Source: Squalus acanthias (lineage: Eukaryota). From it: 64,000 bases of DNA. The position numbers were made by a program, and so were the translations under genes. The notes beneath the pieces are model-generated. The model was not told where the DNA came from, made no database searches, and saw only the letters and a list, made by a program, of their open reading frames with translations. Shown in pieces: positions 1-64,000 of the stretch (position 1 is its first letter; each line of letters opens with the position of its first letter). Location of the stretch: assembly GCA_030390025.1 (NCBI GenBank), contig CM059429.1:54746001-54810000 (forward strand), read 5' to 3'.

Positions 1-3000
1 AGCGTTCCAGATGATGGCATTGTATCGTTCAACCTGTCCGTTACCGATTGGGTGATATGGTGTCGTCCTACTTGAGGCGATTCCCCGTTGGGAGAGATAA
101 CTTTTAAGTTCACTCGACATAAAGGAGGGACCCCGATCAGTGTGGATAAAATTGGCCGTCCCGCAAAGGGAAAAGACCTGATCGAGGCATTTAATTACCG
201 TAGAGGTAAGCATATTAGGGCAGGGGAAGGCGAAGGGAAAGCGTGAATACTCGTCCACCATCGTAAGTAGGTAGGTGTTCCTTGTCGACGAAGGCAATGG
301 CCCTTTAAAGTCTATGCTGAGCCTCTGCATAGGCTGCATTGCATGTATGAGTAAGCCATCTGATGGGCGAAAGAATTGTGGTTTCAATTCTGCACAAATC
401 CTACAGGAGGAGCATGTTTTCTTTACGTCCTCGGTTGAAAATGGTAGATTTTTGGAGCGCACAAAGTGCAACATGCGGGTCACACCAGGATGGCATAAGT
501 CCATATGCAAATCCGCCAGAGTCGACGTTGACATTGAGGAGCAAAATGCCCGTGTGAAGGTATCTGGGGCCACGTTCTGTTTGCCGGGTCGGTAACAGAT
601 AGTATATCCAAAGGCAGCCAGCTCCATCCTCCAGAGTTGAATTTTATTATTTTTGGTTTTCGTGCGCCTCCGGTTATCCAACATGAAGGCCACAGAGTGC
701 TGGTCAGTTATAAGCGTAAAATGACGCCGAGCAAGAAAATGACCCCATTGGCGTACAGCCTCGATGATGGCCGTAGCCTCCTTCTCGACGGGGGGGTAAT
801 GGAGCTCGCTACCCTGCAAGGTTCTGGATAGGAATGCCACGGGTTGGCCACCTTGATTCAAGGTAGCGGAGATCGCCACCTCCGATGCATCGCATTCGAC
901 CACAAAAGGAAGATTTTCGTCAATGGAGCGAAGCGTGGCTTTCTCCAGCTGTCGTTTGAGGAGGTTGAAGGCAGAAATAGCCGTAGCTTCCAATGGAAAA
1001 GACTTTGCATGGAGCAGGGGCTGTATTTTATCGGAGAAGTGTGGTATCCATTTTGCGTAATAAGCAAACATGCCAAGTGCCCGACGAAGAGAGCCGAGGT
1101 TCGTCGGGGGAGGGAGCTCCTGAAGTGGACGAAGTCGCTCTGGGTCCGGTTTAATAACACCGTTGCCCACCCAGTAGCCAAGAATGTTCACCGATGGCAC
1201 CGACTTCACCGATTTGGATTCGTTTAACGTTAAGTGGCAACGGCGGAGTACGTCAAAAAATCTCTGAAGATTGGCGTCATGCTCCTTTTGATCATGGCCG
1301 GCAATAGTGATATTGTCTAAATACGGAAAGGTATCCGTCAAGTTCTCTTGCCGGACTAGGCCATCCATGGCCCGTTGGAAGACGGCCACCCCATTGGTGA
1401 CCCCGAATGGAAGGCGGCGAAACTGGAAAAGCCGACCATTGGCCTCAAAGGCCGTATACTTCTTGTCGGAGTCTTGCAGTGGCACCTGATGGTACGCGCT
1501 TTTTAAATCGAAGGTCGAGAATACCTTGTATTTGGCAAGGTTGTTGACCATGTCATCTATGCGTGGCAGCGGGTAGGCATCCAGATCGGTATATAGATTA
1601 ATAGTCTGCGAATAATCGATACACAGACGTTTTTTATGTTGTTTTAAGGGATTCCTCACGATGACGACCTGAGCCCGCCAGGGAGATGAACATGGCTCGA
1701 TAATACCATCGACTAAAAGGCGAGAGATTTCCGCCTCAATAAACGCTCGATCATCTTGGCTAAAGTGCCGCGATTTGGTGGCTATGGGTTTACAGCGGGG
1801 GGGAAGATTGGCAAACAGGGAGGGTTCACCGAGTAAGGCCGCCGAGAGTGCACAAAACGGCACCTTAGAAATGGTAAGCTCCGGCCTTGACCCTCCAAAC
1901 TCAAAAGTGATCTTCTTGTGCTGCTTCTGGAAGTCCTGTCCCAGAAGCACATCGCTGCATAAGTTTGCGAGTACTCCGAGCCGGGTGGAGAGATACGTGC
2001 GGCCGTTGAGGATGAGGTTGACCAGACAGAAGCCAGAAGAATTGGTGGTCAGAGTCGTCAGAGCCATTGCAATCTCCCTGTCCGAGGGATAAATGTGCAG
2101 TTTTAACCTGTTGACAGCCCGCTTACTAATGAAGCTGTCAGAGCTGCAGGAGTCGATTAGCGCGCTTAGAGTGTGCCCATTTACTGAAACCTTCGTGGCT
2201 GCATGGGACAAACTTTGGGGAAAAACAGCCGTGATGGGAGGAGGGGCAATTTTCCCTTCGGCAACTGTAGCCTTAACAGTAGTTCTTGGGGGAGGAGCAG
2301 CTCCATAGATAGCAGCTGTGAAGCTAACAGGAGCTCCCGACCGGTATACTTTAGAGGAGCGGCCTTTCTTGTTAGCAAAGGCCCGTGACTGGCATACCTT
2401 GGAAAAGTGTCCTTTCTTGCTGCAATGATTGCAGGTCACATTACGAGCCGGGCAAAATTTTCTGTGATGGCACGCCCCTCCACAAAAGAAACACTTTCTT
2501 CCTGATTGCCAGGATGCTGCTAGGGCGGGGTCGTCATCAGCGAAGGCCTCTAGGGTAGGGTCGTCGTCTGTTAGAGTAGAGTCAACATCAGTGGGGGCAT
2601 CCGCCCGAGACCTACCGAAAGACTCATTAAAGGAGATAGCCGCCGCCCGTGCACGTGGTGGGAGATAAGTGTCTGCATTTTTCTTGGCCAAGTCCAAGGA
2701 ACACGCCTGGTCATAAGCAGCCCGTAAATTGAGGGTTTTATTTTCCAGCAGGCGCTGACGTATAAAAGGGGACGCGATTCCATTGATAAAGGAATCGCGG
2801 ATTAGTTCCTCTTGATACTGTTCAGCTGAAACTGCTTTAAGGTTACAATCCTTGCTGAGCCTGCGAAGTTTCTGGAGAAATTCATCGAGTGATTCCCCAG
2901 GCTGCTGCCGAGTTGTGGCCAGTAGGTGTCGAGCAAAGATTTCATTTGGGGACTTGACATATAGCTGCTGTAAGATTTCGATAGCAGTGTCATAGTCTAT

Positions 3001-3189
3001 ACAGTCCTCAATATAATCATACACATGAGGAGACACGTAGTTGATAAGCATTCGTAACTTATTAGGGACATCCGCCCCACATTCTTCAAGAAAGTTGCTA
3101 AAGGTACGAAACCAATGCTTCCATACCTTTGCTGCCGCAGGTGCATTCGGGTCCAGGTCGAGACGAGCGGGTCTAAGGAGTTTTTCCAT
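1..3189 (-). CDS. Gypsy gag-pol polyprotein, single ORF of at least 1063 codons, 3'-partial
   Basis: Manual translation: ATG at 3189 (in-frame TGA just upstream), MEKLLRPARLDLDPNAPAAAKVWKHW; Cys/His knuckles CFFCGGACHHRKFC and CNHCSKKGHFSKVC; protease LIDSCSSDSF; RT FPYLDNITI (~1323); RNaseH ECDASE; integrase HPG...CRIC and TPYHPIGNGQVERYN. Start, RT motif and window end are in the same frame. The ORF track lists no ORF in this frame, which fits there being no stop inside the window. Confidence 0.92.
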   Translation of the reverse strand, partial: MEKLLRPARLDLDPNAPAAAKVWKHWFRTFSNFLEECGADVPNKLRMLINYVSPHVYDYIEDCIDYDTAIEILQQLYVKSPNEIFARHLLATTRQQPGESLDEFLQKLRRLSKDCNLKAVSAEQYQEELIRDSFINGIASPFIRQRLLENKTLNLRAAYDQACSLDLAKKNADTYLPPRARAAAISFNESFGRSRADAPTDVDSTLTDDDPTLEAFADDDPALAASWQSGRKCFFCGGACHHRKFCPARNVTCNHCSKKGHFSKVCQSRAFANKKGRSSKVYRSGAPVSFTAAIYGAAPPPRTTVKATVAEGKIAPPPITAVFPQSLSHAATKVSVNGHTLSALIDSCSSDSFISKRAVNRLKLHIYPSDREIAMALTTLTTNSSGFCLVNLILNGRTYLSTRLGVLANLCSDVLLGQDFQKQHKKITFEFGGSRPELTISKVPFCALSAALLGEPSLFANLPPRCKPIATKSRHFSQDDRAFIEAEISRLLVDGIIEPCSSPWRAQVVIVRNPLKQHKKRLCIDYSQTINLYTDLDAYPLPRIDDMVNNLAKYKVFSTFDLKSAYHQVPLQDSDKKYTAFEANGRLFQFRRLPFGVTNGVAVFQRAMDGLVRQENLTDTFPYLDNITIAGHDQKEHDANLQRFFDVLRRCHLTLNESKSVKSVPSVNILGYWVGNGVIKPDPERLRPLQELPPPTNLGSLRRALGMFAYYAKWIPHFSDKIQPLLHAKSFPLEATAISAFNLLKRQLEKATLRSIDENLPFVVECDASEVAISATLNQGGQPVAFLSRTLQGSELHYPPVEKEATAIIEAVRQWGHFLARRHFTLITDQHSVAFMLDNRRRTKTKNNKIQLWRMELAAFGYTICYRPGKQNVAPDTFTRAFCSSMSTSTLADLHMDLCHPGVTRMLHFVRSKNLPFSTEDVKKTCSSCRICAELKPQFFRPSDGLLIHAMQPMQRLSIDFKGPLPSSTRNTYLLTMVDEYSRFPFAFPCPNMLTSTVIKCLDQVFSLCGTANFIHTDRGPSFMSSELKSYLSQRGIASSRTTPYHPIGNGQVERYNAIIWNA

Positions 3190-3289
3190 GATGGATCAGT
3201 TTCTTGCCGAAGTTCCCTTCTGTGGTTCGAGTTGCAGCTGGTTGTTCCGAATCACCCAAAGCGTGGAGACGATACCAAGTTGATTAAAT

Positions 3290-3504
3290 TGACGTAATAA
3301 AGACTCACTACGCACTTGAACATAAAGCAAGGCTTTAATCAACTTGTAACAAAACATGGCGGTCTAGTTAGCAGTCACTAGCTTCCTGTTTCCAGATTGT
3401 CTCTGCCCAAGGTGGGCCCATGCCTGAGTATTTATACTCCCTGGACGGCGCCCCAGCTGGCCGCCCAGTAGTACTTCCTGAGTTGTTACTTGTGATTTAT
3501 GACA
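3290..3504 (-). repeat. 5' LTR (~215 bp)
   Basis: TGTCATAA...TTACGTCA termini (TG..CA, imperfect inverted ends); TATAAATA at ~3436-3429; ATTAAA at 3339-3334; YY1-like CGCCATGTT motif. Confidence 0.8.
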
Positions 3505-4449
3505 GACACCCAGGTCCCTTTGCACAGCAACATTTCCCAATAATACTCTGCCTTTCTGTTTTTCCTACCGAAGTGGATAACTTCACATTTATCCACGTTA
3601 TACTGCATCTGCCATGTATTTGCCCACTCACTCAACTTGTCTAAATCGCCTTGAAGCCGCTTTGCATCCTCCGCATAACTCACAGTCCCACCTAGTTTCG
3701 TGTCATCAGCAAACTTGGAAATATTACATTTGGTTCCCTCATCCAAATCATTGATATATACTGTGAACAGCTGGGGCCCAAGCACTGATCCCTACGGTAC
3801 CCCACTAGTCACCGCCTGCCACCCTGAAAAAGCCCCATTTATTCCTACTCTCTGTTTCCTGTCTGTTAACTAATTTTCAATCCATGCCAGTATATTACCC
3901 CCAATCCCATGTGCTTTAATTTTGTGCACTAACCTCTTATGTGGAACTTTATCAAAGGCCTTCTGAAAATCCAAATACACCACATCCACTGGTTCTCCCT
4001 TATCTATTCTACCAGTTACATCCTCAAAAAACTCCAGTAGGTTTGTCAAACACAATTTCCCTTTCATAAATCCACGTTGACTTTCTCTAACCCCGTTGAT
4101 ATTTTCTCAGTGTCCTTTTATCACATCCTTTATAACAGACTCTAGCATTTTCCCGACGACTGATGTTAGGCTAACTGGTCTGTAGTTCCCTGTTTTCTCT
4201 CTCCCTCCTTTTTTAAATAGTGGGGTTACATTTGCCACCCTCCAATCTGCAGGAACTGTTCCATAATCTATAGAATTTTGGAAGATGGCAACCAATGCAT
4301 CCATTATTTCCATGGCTACCTCTTTTAGTACTCTGGGATGCAGATTATCAGGCCCTGGGGATTTATCAGCTTTCAGTCCCATTAATTTATCCAACACTTT
4401 TTTTACTAATACTAATTTCCTTTAATTCTTCCTTCTCACTAGACCCTTG
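3505..4449 (-). mobile_element. CR1 LINE ORF2 RT fragment (decayed)
   Basis: [39 protein letters not shown] motifs in broken ORFs. Confidence 0.95.
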
Positions 4450-4819
4450 GGGGTAAAAATTCACTTGGTTGCACCTCCCGTTAGCGCCTTAAGAGGGCGC
4501 TAATGGGGCGTTAAGCCGCTAACGCCCGGGCGCAGTGCTGTTTGCGCCGCTCGAGAACTTAACTTGAGATTGTGCGGCGGCGCTAAAACTTACCGCTGCG
4601 ACCACCTGCGCGCGCAGATTGTGACGTCATTCCATGGTGCAACGCCCTTGGGGCGCCCCGGAGCGGAAATTGAGTGGCGCCCCCTGCCTTACCACCTGGC
4701 GCTTCCAACGACCGGAAGACTGGAACGTTATCAATCGGTGTGGGGCTGGGGGGGGCGCTATTTAAAGGGGGCCTCTTCCTGTCTTTTTCTGTGGTCGACA
4801 TTTATGCACCACTCGTTCT

Positions 4820-4857: not shown

Positions 4858-4961
4858 CTTCTACATTGACTCAACGCTTTGTCAGGTAGTTTTGCCTAGT
4901 TCATCCTAACTTTGTTGCTACTTTAGTTGCTGTACCTCATTACTTTTCTGGCAAAGAGAAT

Positions 4962-6113
4962 ATGGGGGCTGCAATGATTGGGGGCGTCGTCCTGCTCCAG
5001 CTGAATCGGAGGATAGTGAGACGCAGACAGAGAGTGGCAATGATGGCCAGACGGAGGAGGGCCATCAGGCGCATGGACAGGAGAGCTTACCCTCCCAGGG
5101 TATATCGTGAACAGCTCTCCTACATCCATATGTCCGAGGAGCTGTGTTTGCGAAGGCTGCGATTCAGCAAGGAGGTGGTCACTGAGCTCTGCCACCTGCT
5201 GCAGCCAGATCTGCAGCCTCAGCTGAGGTCCAGGACGTCTCTGTCGGTGGCAGTGAAGGTCACAGTGGCTTTGAACTTCTACGCCACTGGCTCATTCCAA
5301 GCTGCTGTTGGGGACCTCGCCAATATCTCCCAGTTTGCGGTGCATCGCTGCATCCGGCAGGTCACCAATGCCCTCTTCAGAAGGAGACGAGACTTCATCT
5401 CTTTCCCTATGACCCCAGACAAGCAGCGTGACCGTGCTCTGGGCTTTGCGAGGGTAGCGGGCTTCCCCATGGTGCAGGGCGCCATTGACTGCACGCATGT
5501 GGCTTTGCGTGCTCCGCGAGAGAATGCAGAGGAATTCAGGAACAGAAAGGGGTTCCATTCCTTGAATGTGCAGTTGGTCTGTGACCACAGACAGGTGATA
5601 CTCGCTGTCAATGCCCACTATCCGGGCAGCTGCCACGATGCTTTCATCCTGCGTCAGACTACTGTGGCAGAAGTTTTCGAGGCACCGCATCAGCCAGTTG
5701 GTTGGCTTCTGGGGGACAAGGGGTACGCATTGAGCACCTGGCTGATGACACCGCTCCGTACGCCAAACACCCCTGCTGAGCTGCGGTACAATGAAAGCCA
5801 TCAAGCAACCAGGAACATTATTGAGCGCACAATCGGCGTGCTGAAACAACGGTTCCGCTGTCTGGACCATTCCGGAGGAGCCCTGCAGTACTCGCCTGAG
5901 CAAGTTTCGAACTTCGTAGTCGTGTGCTGCATGTTGCACAACATGGCAATCGTCAGGACCCAGCCAATGCCACCAGGCCTTGTAGCACCACCAGAGGAAG
6001 AGGAGGAAGAGGACGAGGACGATGATCATCAGCAGCACCAAGGCAGGAGGGCGGCCCACAATGGTCAAACTGCAAGGGCCGTCCGTCAACGACTAATAGC
6101 AAGCCGCTTCTAG
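4962..6113 (+). CDS. Harbinger DDE transposase (HARBI1-like, DDE_Tnp_4), 383 aa, intact
   Basis: GAIDCTHV, NRKGFHSLNVQLVCD, YPGSCHDAFIL, LLGDKGY, TRNIIERTIGVLKQRFRCL, CCMLHN; acidic C-terminal tract; AATAAA at ~6275. Confidence 0.95.
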   Translation: MGAAMIGGVVLLQLNRRIVRRRQRVAMMARRRRAIRRMDRRAYPPRVYREQLSYIHMSEELCLRRLRFSKEVVTELCHLLQPDLQPQLRSRTSLSVAVKVTVALNFYATGSFQAAVGDLANISQFAVHRCIRQVTNALFRRRRDFISFPMTPDKQRDRALGFARVAGFPMVQGAIDCTHVALRAPRENAEEFRNRKGFHSLNVQLVCDHRQVILAVNAHYPGSCHDAFILRQTTVAEVFEAPHQPVGWLLGDKGYALSTWLMTPLRTPNTPAELRYNESHQATRNIIERTIGVLKQRFRCLDHSGGALQYSPEQVSNFVVVCCMLHNMAIVRTQPMPPGLVAPPEEEEEEDEDDDHQQHQGRRAAHNGQTARAVRQRLIASRF

Positions 6114-6400: not shown

Positions 6401-8442
6401 CTACTTTTTGCCCTTCGAGGGTGATCTCCTTCCCTTGCGCACTTCCCCCCTTCTAACCCTACTGCTCCTCCGTAATGGGACCTCAGTGGCTGCAGCAAGG
6501 CTGGTGGAAGGCTGCTGCTCGTCAGACCCTGACACTGCAGATGCCCCTGAAGGACGGCCTCGACCACTTCTGGGCCTGGAGGGCCCGGCTGCAGACTGCA
6601 CCAACTCTGCATGGGCGGCAGCAGTCTGTCCTACAGGCGGTGGCAAGTGCAGTGGAGAAGTGACAGTGTTGGCAGCAGGAATGCTGTCATCGTGAGAGAG
6701 GACAGCAACTCCCTGCTCGCCCGACACACTGGCACTCCCACGGGGCAGCACTTCAGCATCCGGAGCAATCTGCCGGAGAACAGATTGCTGGCCTGCTGCG
6801 GCGCGGTGACAGCCCCGGGGACATGTGCACGAACCATCGAGGTTGGCAGCAGTCAGTGCTCGCGTGGCCTCCATCTGAGTCTGTATGAGAGCAGTCAGAG
6901 GTGGGATCACGGCAGCCAGTGACTGAATTGCAGCACTAAGCGTTAGTGTGGCATCCGCCTGTGCTACAGCGAAGTGCTCCACACTCCTTGCCAGTGACTC
7001 AATGCATTCGGGCACCCTTCCCACTGCACCCATGAGCTCAGTGTGCATGCCCACCGCCTGGGTGTTCATTTCTGCAATCAGCCGCTCCTCCTCTGCGTCC
7101 ATTGCAGTAGGAGTGTCTGGCATACTCTCCCTCTGGGGAGAAGGCCCCCGTTCTTCCCTACCCCCCCCCCCATGGCGTTGCTGCAGCCCGCTGGGTCCTG
7201 GAGCTTCACCATCATCAGCCCCTTCCCCCCTGCTCCCCTCCGGGGAAGGCGTGTTCCCAGTGTGAGCATGGGCTTCCTCGGGAGAGGGTGGCACTGATGC
7301 TCTGGCTTCCTCTTCCTCCTCAGCTGCAGCATCACTCCCAGTGGCAGCTTCAGGGCCCGTCTCCTCAGCTGGTGAATCACCATCTGAAAGCAGGGAGGTA
7401 CAAGAGTGGCTTTAGCGTGAGGACAGGGTGGCAGTAAGGGAGGAATAAGTGCAGCGATTTAGTAAGTTGGATTGAAAGTGTCAAAGGCTGGTATTGTGAG
7501 GGACAAGTGGAAGGACAGAGGACAAAAAGGTGATGACCTTACCATTGCTGTCCACAACGGGGTCGGCGTCTCCAGTGGCGACGGGACCGATCACCCGGCT
7601 TGCCACAATCCTGTGGACGCGCTCCTCCAGATCGCTGAGGGGTTGCAGCTGAAGCCGCCCTCCACCCGTCCGTTGCTGCTGTCTCCGATTATGAGCCAGC
7701 TTAGCCTGCAAGAAAAAGGACAGCATCTGAGTAAATATACAGCCATGGTCTTGCCTGATGTGCCTCCCATAGGTGAATAGCCCTTACAATATGCAGCCAT
7801 GGTCTTGCCTGATGTGCCTCCCATAGGTGAATAGCCCTTACAATATACAGCCATGGTCTTGCCTGATGTGCCTCCCATAGGTGAATAGCCCTTACAATAT
7901 ACAGCCATGGTCTTGCCTGATGTGCCTCCCATAGGTGAATAGCCCTTACAATATACAGCCATGGTCTTGCCTGATGTGCCTCCCATAGGTGAATAGCCCT
8001 TACAATATACAGCCATGGTCTTGCCTGATGTGCCTCCCATAGGTGAATAGCCCTTACTGTATGCAAAGTGTAGAATGTGTGTGTGTGTTTGATGAAAGGG
8101 CCATAGGTGTTGGATGAGTGTTGTGCATTGGGGTTTTAAGACCCTCTGGCCATAGAGTGAGGTTGAGATGGAGGGATGGAGAGGTATTGAGAAAAAGCCA
8201 CTCACCCTGACGACCCGAGTGAGGTCGTTGAACTTTTTGCGGCATTGAACATGGGTCCTGGGCACCATGCTCCTGGAGGAGACGCTCTGAGCCACCTCCC
8301 TCCACACTCTTCTGAACTCGCGTGGCAAAGGCCTCCTGCCACTCTCCGGGAACAGCATGCATCGTCTGCGCTCCACTGCGTCAACCAGAGCATCCAAGGC
8401 CCGCTCGGTGAAGCGATGAGCGCGTTCTCTCACCCTCTCCAT
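6401..8442 (-). CDS. Harbinger Myb/SANT-like (trihelix) DNA-binding protein, 3 exons: 8442-8206, 7705-7543, 7383-6401 (~460 aa)
   Basis: Exon 1 MERVRERAHRFTERALDALV...WREVA...QCRKKFNDL; donors AGG|GTGAGT and ATG|GTAAGG, acceptors TTGCAG and TTTCAG; phases 0 and 1 join in frame into ORF 6401-7294; basic NLS-like C-terminus. Confidence 0.88.
7735..8058. repeat. 54-bp minisatellite, ~6 near-identical copies, in intron 1 of the Myb gene
   Basis: unit ATATACAGCCATGGTCTTGCCTGATGTGCCTCCCATAGGTGAATAGCCCTTACA. Confidence 0.95.
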
Positions 8443-8799
8443 GCTTGGCAGCAAAATGGATTACAGGTCTCTCCAGGCTGAGATTCAAGGCTGCAATGAG
8501 CAGGGTGTGGCTGGGGAGCAAGTGGCCCCCCCCGCTTTAAGAAGTGTCCGGCGCCAGTGTGTCTGTGTTCCCTCGCTAACTGGCAGCAGCTGCGCTGCGC
8601 TCGTGCGCTGAGTTAGCGCCTCACTCCTTGGCCTTTGCGCCTTAAGACAGGTGTGCCGCGCCTGCTTTAGCGCTCCACTCACCTCCCGGGGCGGTAAAAG
8701 TGAAGTTTCCTGTCAGTGCCGATAATTAGCGCCAGGCGCTAATATTTGCGTCCAGACGATATTTGCGCCCCAAATGGGGCGCGACCTAATTTTTACCCC

Positions 8800-44036: not shown

Positions 44037-46150
44037 CTAAAACTACTGATAAGGGTGGTGCTGTTGTTGTTTGGCGAACCGACCTCTACCGTGCGGAAGC
44101 TGAACGCCAACTCTCTGACACCTCCTCCTACCTCCGCCTGGACCATGACCCCACTAGCAAACATCAGGCCATTGTTTCCAAGACTGTCACTGACCTCATC
44201 TCCTCTGGAGATCTTCCCTCCATGGCCGCCAACCTCATAGTCCCCCAACCCCGCACAGCCCGTTGTACCTCCTTCCCAAGATCCACAAACAGGACTGCCC
44301 TGGTAGACCCATTGTTTCAGCCTGTTCTTGCCCCACTGAACTTATCTCTTCCTATCTCGACTCTATTTTTCCTCCCCTTGTCCAGTCTCTTCCCACCTAC
44401 ATCCGTGACTCTTCTGACGCCCTCCGACACTTTAACAGTTTCCAGTTTCCTGGCTCCAACCGTCTCCTTTTCACTATGGACGTCCAATCCCTCTACACCT
44501 CCATCCCCCACCAGGACGGCCTGAGGGCGCTCCGTTTCTTCCTTGAACAGAGGCCCAACCAGTCCCCATCCACCACCACCCTCCTCCGCCTGGCTGAACT
44601 TGTTCTCACATTGAACAACTTCTCCTCTGACTCCAGTCACTTCCTCCAAATTAAAGGTGTTGCTATGGGAACCCGCATGGGCCCTAGCTATGCCTGCCTG
44701 TTCATGGGATATGTGGAACATTCTTTGTTCCAGTCCTACTCAGGTCCCCTCCCTCACCTCTTTTTCCGGTACATCGATGACTGTATCGGTGCCGTTTCCT
44801 GCTCTCGACCTGAACTAGATAAGTTCATTCACTTTACTTCCAATTTCCACCCTTCCCTCACCTTCACATGGTCCATCTCCGACTCTTCCCTTCCCTTCCC
44901 TTCCTTGACTTCTCCATCTCCATTTCTGGCGATCGGCTTTCGACAAACATCCACTACAAGCCCACTGACTCCCACAGCTACCTGGACTACACTTCCTCCC
45001 ACCCCGCTTCCTGTAAGGACTCTATTCCATTCTCCCAGTTTCTTCGTCTCCGCCGCGTCTGTTCTGACGATGCCACCTTCCATACCAGTGCTTCCGACAT
45101 GTCTTCCTTTTTCCTCAACCAAGGATTCCCCTCTACCGTAGTTGACATGGCCCTTGACCGTGTCCGTTTCATTTCCCGCACTTCTGCTCTAACCCCTTCC
45201 CCTCCCTCCCAGAACCATGATAGGGTTCCCCTTGTCCTCACCTTTCATCCCACCAGCCTCCACATTCAACGGATAATCCTCCGCCATTTCCGCCACCTCC
45301 AACGTGATCCCACCACCAAACACATCTTCCCCTCACCTCCCCTTTCAGCATTCCAAAGGGACCGCTCCCTCCGCGACACCCTGGTCCACTCCTCAATCAC
45401 CCCTAACAGCCCTTCTCCTTCGCCTAGCACCTTCCTGTGCAAGCGCAGGAGATGCAACACCTGCCCTTTTACTTCCTCCCTTCCCACTGTCCAGGGCCCC
45501 AAACACCCCTTCCAGGTGAAACAGCGATTTACTTGTACTTCTTGCAATTTAATATACTGTATTCGCTGCTCACAATGCGGTCTCCTCTACATTGGGGAGA
45601 CCAAACGCAGATTGGGTGACCGCTTTGCGGAACACCTCCGTTCAGTCCGTAAGGGTGACCCTGAGCTTCCGGTCGCCTGTCACTTTAATTCTCCGCTTCA
45701 CTCCCACTCTGATCTCTCTGTCCTTGGCCTATTACATTGTTCCAATGAAGCTCAACGTAAGCTCGAGGAACAGCACCTCATCTTCCGATTAGGCACTTTA
45801 CAGCCTTCCGGACTCAACATCGAGTTCAACAATTTCAGACAATAATCCCTGCCCCCATTTTTCATGCTGTATGATTTTGCCATTCCCATTTGCAACATTT
45901 TATCTTTCCTGCCTCTTACATAAGCACAGTATGTTCTTTCAATTCCTTCCTCCCCTCCTAACCCCCCCCCCCCGCTGTCTCTGCACCTGCTTAATATCTG
46001 TTACATCTTCAGCTTTTTCCAGTTCTGATGAAGGGTCCCAGACCTGAAACGTTAACTCTGTTTCTCTCTCCACGGATGCTGCCTGGCCTGCTGAGTATTT
46101 CCAGCATTTTCTGTTGTTATTTCAGATTTCCAGCATCCGTAGTATTTTGC
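44037..46150 (+). mobile_element. Penelope-like retroelement (RT + GIY-YIG endonuclease), 5'-truncated, two frameshifts
   Basis: DKGGAVVVW, YLLPKIHK, GRPIVS, GVAMGT, FRYIDD, NLIYCIRCSQCGLLYIGETKRRL. Confidence 0.95.
46021..46057 (+). ncRNA. minimal type I hammerhead ribozyme in Penelope terminal repeat
   Basis: AGTT-CTGATGA-agGGTC-cca-GACCt-GAAA-CGTT-AACT: complete core, stems I and II, palindromic stem III. Confidence 0.75.
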
Positions 46151-63056: not shown

Positions 63057-64000
63057 TCAACAGAAAATGCTGGAAACACTCAGCAGGTCAGGCAGCATCG
63101 AGGAGAGAGAAACAGTCAACGTTTCAGGTCGAGGACCCTTCATCAGAACTGGAAAAGGTTAGAGAAGAGAGAATTTTAAGCAGGGGCAGGGAGGAGGGGA
63201 GGAAAGAACGAAGGGAAGGTCTGTGACAGGCTGGAAGGCAGGAGAGATTGACTGACAAAAGGGATGATGGTGCAAGGCATAAAGAGAGGTAATGGGACAA
63301 ATTAAGAAACAAAAGATGACTCTAGATGAGGTGTGAATGGCGATGGCAGAATCATTAACAGCTGCCATGTGAGAAGACAAGGGGAAATTTTTTAAAAAAA
63401 TATAGGGGCCGAGGTTATAGTCTGAAATTGTTGAACTCGATGTGAAGTCCAGAAAGCTGTAAAGTGCCGAATCGAAAGATGAGGTGCTGTTCCTCGAGCT
63501 TATGTTGAGCTTCGTTGGAACAGTGTAAGAGGCCGAGGATGGAGAGGTCAGAGTGGGAGTGGAGCGGAGAATTAAAGTTTCAGGCGACCGTAAGATCGGG
63601 GTCACGCTTGTGGACTGAACGGAGGTGTTCCGCAAAGCGGTCACCCAATCTGCGTTTGGTCTCCCCAATGTAGAGGAGAACGCATCGTGAGTAGCGAATA
63701 CAGTACACTAAATTGTAAGAAGTACAAGTAAATTGCTGTTTCACCTGGAAGGAGTGTTTGGGGCCCTGGACAGTGGGAAGGGAGGAGGTAAAAGGGTAGG
63801 TGTTGCATCTCCTGCGCTTGCACGGGAAGGTGCCGGGTGAAGGGGAAGGGGTGTTGGGGGTGATAGAGGAGTGGACCAGGGTGTCGCGGAGGGAGCGGTC
63901 CCTTCGGAATGCTGAAAGGGGGGGCTGCGGGGGGGAAGATGTGTTTGGTGGTGGGATCACGTTGGAGGTGGCGGAAATGGTGCAGGATGATCCGTTGAAT
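63057..64000 (-). mobile_element. Penelope-like element 3' part (runs off window end)
   Basis: highly similar to 45260-46120; LYIGETKRRLGDRFAEH. Confidence 0.93.
63113..63151 (-). ncRNA. minimal type I hammerhead ribozyme in second Penelope copy
   Basis: reverse strand CAGTT-CTGATGA-agGGTC-ctc-GACCt-GAAA-CGTT-GACTG. Confidence 0.75.

Follow-up and report, generated by a model that had tools for sequence, protein, structure and literature searches.

How does a retrotransposon start reverse transcription when the site next to its 5′ LTR is complementary to its own LTR? The question is raised by a Ty3/Gypsy element at one edge of the 64,000-nucleotide stretch of DNA analysed here (the window). 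The original prediction offered two readings of this complementarity: self-priming, or a hairpin, possible only at the 5′ LTR, that masks premature polyadenylation. The fixed register, the covariation of the two paired segments and the lack of TGG at 29 of 29 anchored loci favor self-priming and speak against masking as the main role.

Papers cited by PMC identifier are represented by passages, and statements about them apply to those passages. Within Ty3/Gypsy, self-priming is treated as a mark of Tf1/sushi chromoviruses, and experiments on self-primed reverse transcription are described only for fission-yeast Tf1-type elements (PMC6317226, PMC10085805). Based on our comparison, the paired stem is real, present clade-wide and very likely a self-priming signal; if so, a variant of a known mechanism operates in a lineage where we found no description of self-priming.

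A Ty3/Gypsy element that runs out of the window

The element lies on the minus strand (Table 1). Its ORF of 1063 aa, opened by the ATG at 3189, is stop-free to the window edge and encodes gag, then protease, RT, RNase H and integrase, which is the Ty3/Gypsy order; the best PDB match of the protein is Ty3 Gag-Pol. Domain order, TG...CA LTRs and a polypurine tract show that the element belongs to the Ty3/Gypsy LTR retrotransposons. The DSC protease motif was considered as a lesion and rejected, since it is also present in 24/120 relatives. No tRNA gene was found within the 64-kb window.

The 3′ LTR lies beyond the window, and the LTR bounds are those of the 5′ LTR alone. Its ends were read from contigs of three public runs (X1, X4 and X11) over region 2900-3620; four of 23 listed public runs were compared with this region, three as contig sets and one as a raw RNA run. 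Loose contig ends and high depth are found at 3505, at the border between the LTR and the flanking LINE fragment, which we take to be CR1-type. The LINE content would suit a cartilaginous fish as host. The three contig sets differ from the window by 2-4 bases over 420 bp. At least half of the words of the element region (1-3560) occur in 19 of the 23 listed runs, which carry six organism codes, some runs being unlabelled. This spread may reflect a young family present in close relatives, a mix-up of labels or transfer.

The window holds other mobile elements. A DDE_Tnp_4 transposase at 4890-6113 (+) faces a Myb/SANT-like ORF at 7591-8460 (-), a pair presumably typical of Harbinger/PIF transposons; the Myb/SANT-like ORF runs into a 54-bp tandem repeat. 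At 44194-45845 (+), an RT and, behind it, a weak match to GIY-YIG lie in two frames. This element, which we assume to be Penelope-like, has a 91% inverted partial copy near 63398-64000, 17.5 kb away.

Table 1. Features of the element and its flank in the window (coordinates on the forward strand).
Feature	Position	Strand	Remark
Single gag-protease-RT-RNase H-integrase ORF	1..3189	-	Window edge cuts inside integrase
RT active-site motif YLDN in place of YxDD	1312..1323	-	Same in most of the clade
Primer-binding-position arm	3276..3288	-	Exact reverse complement of 3346-3334; begins 1 nt past the LTR CA
Single spacer base between LTR CA and arm	3289	-	
5′ LTR, 215 bp, TG...CA	3290..3504	-	Contig breaks at 3290 and 3504, the termini
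9-bp hairpin at LTR end	3292..3313	-	p 0.02 in the window copy; no excess over 20 families
GCCT just past the LTR arm	3330..3333	-	Conserved RCCT motif
Predicted cut at the LTR arm	between 3334 and 3333	-	Predicted
LTR arm, predicted self-primer	3334..3346	-	LTR positions 159-171; ATTAAA (3339-3334) at its end
Conserved AGY in the LTR arm	3344 (first base)	-	
TATAAA within a short palindrome	3431..3436	-	Absent as a conserved feature in relatives
Flanking LINE fragment, insertion target of the element	3505..4450	-	RT fragment; many copies in the window

The stem at the primer-binding position of the window copy

The description from which we started holds up for this copy. The two 13-nt arms are perfect reverse complements without a mismatch, the 13-mer at 3276-3288 (+) having no match in the 64 kb other than these two; the contig breaks place the first arm one base past the terminal CA, as proposed; ATTAAA lies inside the LTR segment, where it forms the last six bases of the arm; and the TATA-like box is indeed about 90 nt upstream of the paired segment. 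A palindrome surrounds that box (3425-3442 (-), GAGTAT-AA-ATACTC).

The nearest TGG had been placed about 12 nt from the LTR. This is correct for the window copy but not as a family feature: base 3275 is another letter in the sole covering contig of each of three runs, so this TGG is private to the window copy. For the same reason, an iMet-like tRNA site at the TGG past the stem was rejected.

In a folding prediction of the 181-nt region the two arms pair, enclosing a loop of 45 nt (24-70 nt in relatives). The folding energy of the whole region is at the level of shuffled sequences (z -0.18), so the case for the stem rests on relatives. Region 3100-3600 has no Rfam match at E up to 1, and the one raw RNA run compared has 0 reads on the stretch. 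One run carries a minor LTR variant at 3341, with no matching change in its one primer-site contig.

The stem recurs in relatives

A protein search gave 1000 matches among 8000 scored, the best 120 listed being our set of relatives. These are 49-68% identical to the element and mostly 1150-1250 aa long. Named hosts among them are a prawn and a copepod, corals and anemones, a nematode and also a tunicate; the tunicate relatives are 50-53% identical to the element. A separate search added a cockroach. Overall, hosts of the clade comprise cnidarians, crustaceans, insects, a nematode, tunicates and a vertebrate. An alignment of 50 relatives led to the best 80 of 510 metagenome loci and to 5 genome-bin loci; two scans of viral contigs gave no relative. 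The five genome-bin loci (L081-L085) are elements of this animal clade inside bacterial genome bins, most likely through eukaryotic contamination of the bins.

Among these 85 loci, 33 have a match to the gag N-terminus; the remaining 52 were left out of the stem count. In 28 of the 33, down to the deepest branch, L082, a stem of 11-19 bp is found in this register. Among 28 loci with enough upstream DNA, 25 have a perfect inverted repeat of 10-19 bp, compared to shuffle maxima of 7-11. Of the other five, L054, L056 and L082 have stems of 14, 14 and 15 bp, respectively. At L010 the arms lie, by eye, at opposite contig ends, and this locus was not counted as having a stem.

The stem is absent in four loci (L027, L047, L067 and L053). 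The first three have broken ORFs and no LTR pair that could be found, and accordingly they have likely lost their 5′ end. Loss of the complementarity in related elements, one of the results that would have spoken against the original prediction, did not come up. Contig ends of the loci show neither a poly(A) tail nor a start at the arm.

The stem is set by the LTR end

For a set of anchored loci, LTR ends were fixed without reference to the stem, from LTR pairs and 5-bp target duplications. Automatic LTR calls for L001, L005, L006, L016, L030, L081 and L084 were artefacts of self-overlap or of tandem or simple repeats and were excluded as LTR pairs. The 5-bp duplication is present in 10 of 11 elements checked, with none at L003.

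In 26 of 29 anchored loci, window included, the second arm starts exactly one base past the CA. In L016 it starts two bases past the CA, and in L046 and L065 the 5′ CA is altered. As the register was first chosen by best pairing, the check lies in its match to the independently fixed LTR end. None of the 29 loci has a TGG near the LTR end: a TGG-starting tRNA primer site within a few bases of the LTR is not a feature of the clade.

The two arms covary

To look at covariation we used 20 families, namely the window and 19 loci, after dropping 9 near-copies. Over stem positions 1-13, 256 of 260 cells are Watson-Crick pairs, with 1 G-U and 3 mismatches. When second arms are permuted among families, the mean is 172.9 and the maximum in 10,000 permutations is 210. 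The covariation that the original prediction expected between the primer-binding position and the LTR-internal 13-mer across family copies is therefore found. The 20 families carry 17 distinct 13-mers, and 11 of the 13 positions show 2-4 pair types. As the families are related and the cells not independent, the 260 cells overstate the number of events. Pairing is complete at position 13 (20 of 20 families) and found in 15, 10, 12 and 4 families at positions 14, 15, 16 and 17, respectively.

Within one family, compared to sister copies that are 97.8-98.8% identical, L007 has one change in both LTR arms together with the matching primer-site change. In L011 both LTR arms are changed with no match in the primer site, and in L008 the primer site alone is changed; a mismatch at position 14 is common to L009, L045 and L046. 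It is possible that L011 and L007 represent the two states expected if the primer templates the site one round later; the same pattern is equally expected from selection.

We also observed that L008, L012, L013 and L021 share the 13-mer and the next GCC with the window, at about 51% protein identity and in another sub-branch. This is probably due to a motif with few free positions.

Conserved letters around the LTR arm

The LTR arm ends in AA in all 20 families and in AAA in 18. The first bases past it are R (19/20), C (19/20), C (18/20) and T (18/20), so that an AAA|RCCT junction is conserved across the 20 families. RCCT opens a hairpin of at least 4 bp in 13 families, compared to 3.4 in shuffles that kept the first four bases past the arm; 0 of 2000 shuffles reach 13. 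This small RCCU...AGGY hairpin is thereby conserved in most families of the clade, the window copy being one of the 7 without an RCCT hairpin from +1.

Toward the other end of the arm, a T-rich run is followed by A at -11 (16/20), G at -10 (18/20) and a pyrimidine at -9 (19/20). In sequence, this T-rich YYAGY motif resembles an initiator, for which the consensus TCAKTY has been given (PMC3601003). The initiator-like A is 11 nt from the predicted cut, and a start there would yield a primer of 11 nt, the Tf1 length, yet pairing reaches position 13 in all families and 14 in 15 of them. A start exactly at this A leaves the outer stem pairs unexplained, and since pairing extends beyond 11 nt from the cut, the transcript may start slightly upstream or at mixed positions.

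TATAAA is found upstream in 1 of 20 families, the window copy, and TATATA at scattered places in 3; a TATA box as the clade promoter was rejected accordingly. The suspicion that the geometry may differ from Tf1 had been drawn from a TATA box at -90. That ground is confined to one copy. The geometry does depart from Tf1 in another respect, since the flanking duplexes of Tf1 type are not enriched over the 20 families: loop-leader pairing scores 130 compared to 131.8 in shuffles, and the LTR-end stem 96 compared to 90.4, with 96 of 500 shuffles as high.

Predicted self-priming and its alternatives

Taken together, the register fixed to the LTR end, the clade-wide covariation and the lack of TGG at 29 of 29 loci strongly support a predicted self-priming role. 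We consider it highly probable that the elements of this clade prime themselves in one of two forms, by the 5′ or the 3′ copy of the arm, and probable that they use the 5′ copy in the manner of Tf1.

In such a scheme, the 13-nt LTR segment in the RNA would pair with the 13 nt that begin one base past the LTR; the stem has the corresponding polarity, with the LTR segment's 3′ end facing the LTR end. By analogy with Tf1, the element's RNase H would cut between AAA and the conserved RCCU, possibly aided by the small hairpin just past RCCU. The LTR segment, freed after its final AAA, would then replace a tRNA as minus-strand primer. RT would copy the 45-nt loop as strong-stop DNA and jump to the 3′ LTR. 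This transfer would use whatever of R lies downstream of the cut; a poly(A) signal at the arm end would leave that sequence in the RNA and in this way fits self-priming well. Less firmly, transcription may start at the T-rich YYAGY motif, at the arm or a few bases before it. The primer site of new copies might also be templated by the primer, an idea weakened by Ty1 and Ty3, where new copies do not take their PBS from the primer (PMC5371799).

Could the 3′ copy serve instead? In that case the arm copy within the 3′ LTR portion of the same RNA, or of the partner RNA of the dimer, would be cut after AAA, or the RNA would end there, and both RNA ends would be brought together for transfer. Since the arm is present in both LTRs, this reading suits the register and the covariation just as well, and the arm ends in AAA opposite TTT. 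Nonetheless, we find it unlikely. The natural RNA end lies 10-30 nt beyond a poly(A) hexamer; with a poly(A)-like hexamer at the arm end in 10 of 20 families, the RNA would end beyond the arm and would have to be cut in any case. Moreover, with only 24-70 nt between them, the 5′ arm and its partner should pair first, and cutting the 3′ copy would cost the RNA the R sequence that lies downstream of the cut.

The remaining readings give the stem another job or bring in another primer. A hairpin restricted to the 5′ LTR might shield the poly(A) signal from premature cleavage, with priming by other means. Such a role would suit two observations: AATAAA or ATTAAA makes up the last six arm bases in 10 of 20 families, with near-variants in the rest, and the partner strand lies outside the LTR, so that only the 5′ copy can fold. 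A canonical hexamer is in the loop in 3 families, however, and in L002 and L003 it is the sole one of arm or loop. Masking also leaves the one-base register, the near absence of G-U (1/260) and the missing tRNA site unexplained and, as the main role, would leave the element without a primer. It is therefore very unlikely as an explanation, though plausible as at most a second job of the stem. A stem that mainly controls translation or packaging through the gag start codon is highly improbable. Its end is no more than about 21 nt from the gag ATG in most relatives, and it overlaps the ATG in L011 and L034, but the ATG is 86 nt away in the window copy, the position of the stem is fixed to the LTR end rather than to the ATG, and the primer would still be missing. 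Finally, a host tRNA or tRNA half might prime at the site, the LTR match being secondary; half-tRNA priming does exist in copia-type elements (PMC6317226). Against this, the TGG is absent at all anchored loci and private in the window copy, and where a tRNA site would be conserved within a lineage, each of the 17 different 13-mers fits its own LTR. We regard this reading as extremely improbable.

A second puzzle in the reverse transcriptase

The clade carries a further peculiarity. The window ORF has YxDN, as do 90 of 120 relatives; 22 have YxDD, and 8 are unmatched. Deep rows such as L082 and L016 combine YLDD with the stem, so the two features are separable. In Ty3, the same change keeps the polymerase, with low processivity, and blocks transposition (PMC5371799), which makes the YxDN RT of this clade a second puzzle. 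A literature search on YLDN with reverse transcriptase found no paper.

Implications of the proposed self-priming in this clade

If a widespread animal clade that lacks both the chromodomain and the Tf1 pretzel does prime itself, tRNA-free priming is either older or has arisen more than once, and the clade offers natural covariation data on what RNase H needs for cutting an RNA duplex. The elements would also be predicted to escape silencing by tRNA fragments aimed at primer sites. Tools that demand a tRNA primer site would mis-score them as defective.

No paper on priming in this clade was found in the literature searched, a body without some primary papers and Repbase Reports. Its passages describe self-priming in Tf1/sushi, Tcn1 and copia TAR, and leave the primer sites of Skipper, GalEa and bivalve TRIMs unexplained. 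The clade's stem is not described in the available passages of PMC6934838, PMC6317226, PMC5006619, PMC6238403, PMC3601003, PMC7175516, PMC4600332, PMC3670739, PMC2577118, PMC5341516, PMC10085805 and PMC5371799. The ESM Atlas gave unnamed or generic gag clusters only.

Placement of the clade

Gag contains two CX2CX4HX4C arrays in 94 of the 120 relatives, and two CCHC arrays together with a CPA motif in 91; purine tracts precede the 3′ LTRs of 8 relatives. The window ORF ends inside integrase, and the evidence on a chromodomain comes from relatives: no PF00385 is listed for the best 120, and none was found in 6 full-length rescans at E 0.1.

In RT-RNase H trees the clade stands apart from the chromodomain core on a single long branch with full support (100/100). 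The quick tree held 42 clade rows of 70, after dropping 5 rows without the full segment and 4 near-identical outgroup rows, and the careful LG tree 12 of 34. Outgroups were unnamed long proteins, five with a chromodomain, Tf1 and sushi not being represented by a named sequence. In the LG tree, but not in the quick tree, one long chromodomain row groups with the clade (92/99). In an AU test on these rows, a union of the clade with the chromodomain core is not rejected (p 0.223).

It is conceivable, though we lean towards doubt, that this chromodomain-less animal clade evolved self-priming separately from Tf1/sushi, with an RNA design of its own. As a joint claim, this would include a primer ending in a poly(A) signal, a small hairpin that directs the cut to AAA|RCCU, renewal of the primer site from the primer in every round and, in most members, a working RT with Asn where the third catalytic Asp would be.

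Comparison with known systems

The short single ORF, the two CCHC arrays and the 5-bp target duplication recall the Mag lineage and Cigr-1. Mag-lineage elements are described with tRNA primer sites, unlike this clade. Simmen and Bird are said to have reported in 2000 a Cigr-1 ORF of about 1210 aa, from a tunicate host. From this length and the tunicate relatives, our guess is that the clade may be that of Cigr-1. Two CCHC arrays are typical of Mag and Micropia/Mdg3 (PMC2577118). A motif search gave no Cigr-1 sequence in the readable supplements of PMC6238403, PMC2577118 and PMC8556966, and PMC2774666 was searched without matches.

A stem over a poly(A) signal near the RNA 5′ end is also known from HIV-1, whose poly(A) hairpin covers AAUAAA at the RNA 5′ end. 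The HIV-1 hairpin lies wholly inside R, with a separate tRNA site, whereas in our clade the partner strand occupies the primer site.

Self-priming has been predicted for the Tcn1 clade and for the copia TAR lineage (Houba, Osr-1) from complementarity of at least 10 bp starting 0-5 bp past the LTR (PMC6317226). The stems described here show the same features. Tcn1 is chromoviral and the plant TAR elements are Ty1/copia, in lineages and hosts other than those of our clade.

The closest parallel is the Tf1/sushi group, with Tf1/Tf2 of Schizosaccharomyces pombe, Tj1, Tosmo and Tcry1, which shares with the clade a PBS complementary to its own LTR; Tf1/sushi elements also share the Ty3/Gypsy domain order. 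In that group the own-LTR PBS is next to the 5′ LTR (PMC7175516, PMC4600332, PMC10085805), and in Tf1 it is the first 11 bases that anneal to the PBS, with the RNase H cut falling between bases 11 and 12 (PMC7175516). The differences lie in the details: a stem of 11-19 bp compared to 11 in Tf1, the AAA|RCCT junction with its small hairpin, the poly(A)-like hexamer at the arm end, the two zinc knuckles and the mostly YxDN RT. The Tf1 group also has an integrase chromodomain and a three-duplex 'pretzel' (PMC10085805), whereas our clade has no chromodomain in the relatives searched and no enrichment of the flanking duplexes. Judged by its sequence, the element would thus work like Tf1 while departing from Tf1/sushi in two features, the chromodomain and the pretzel.
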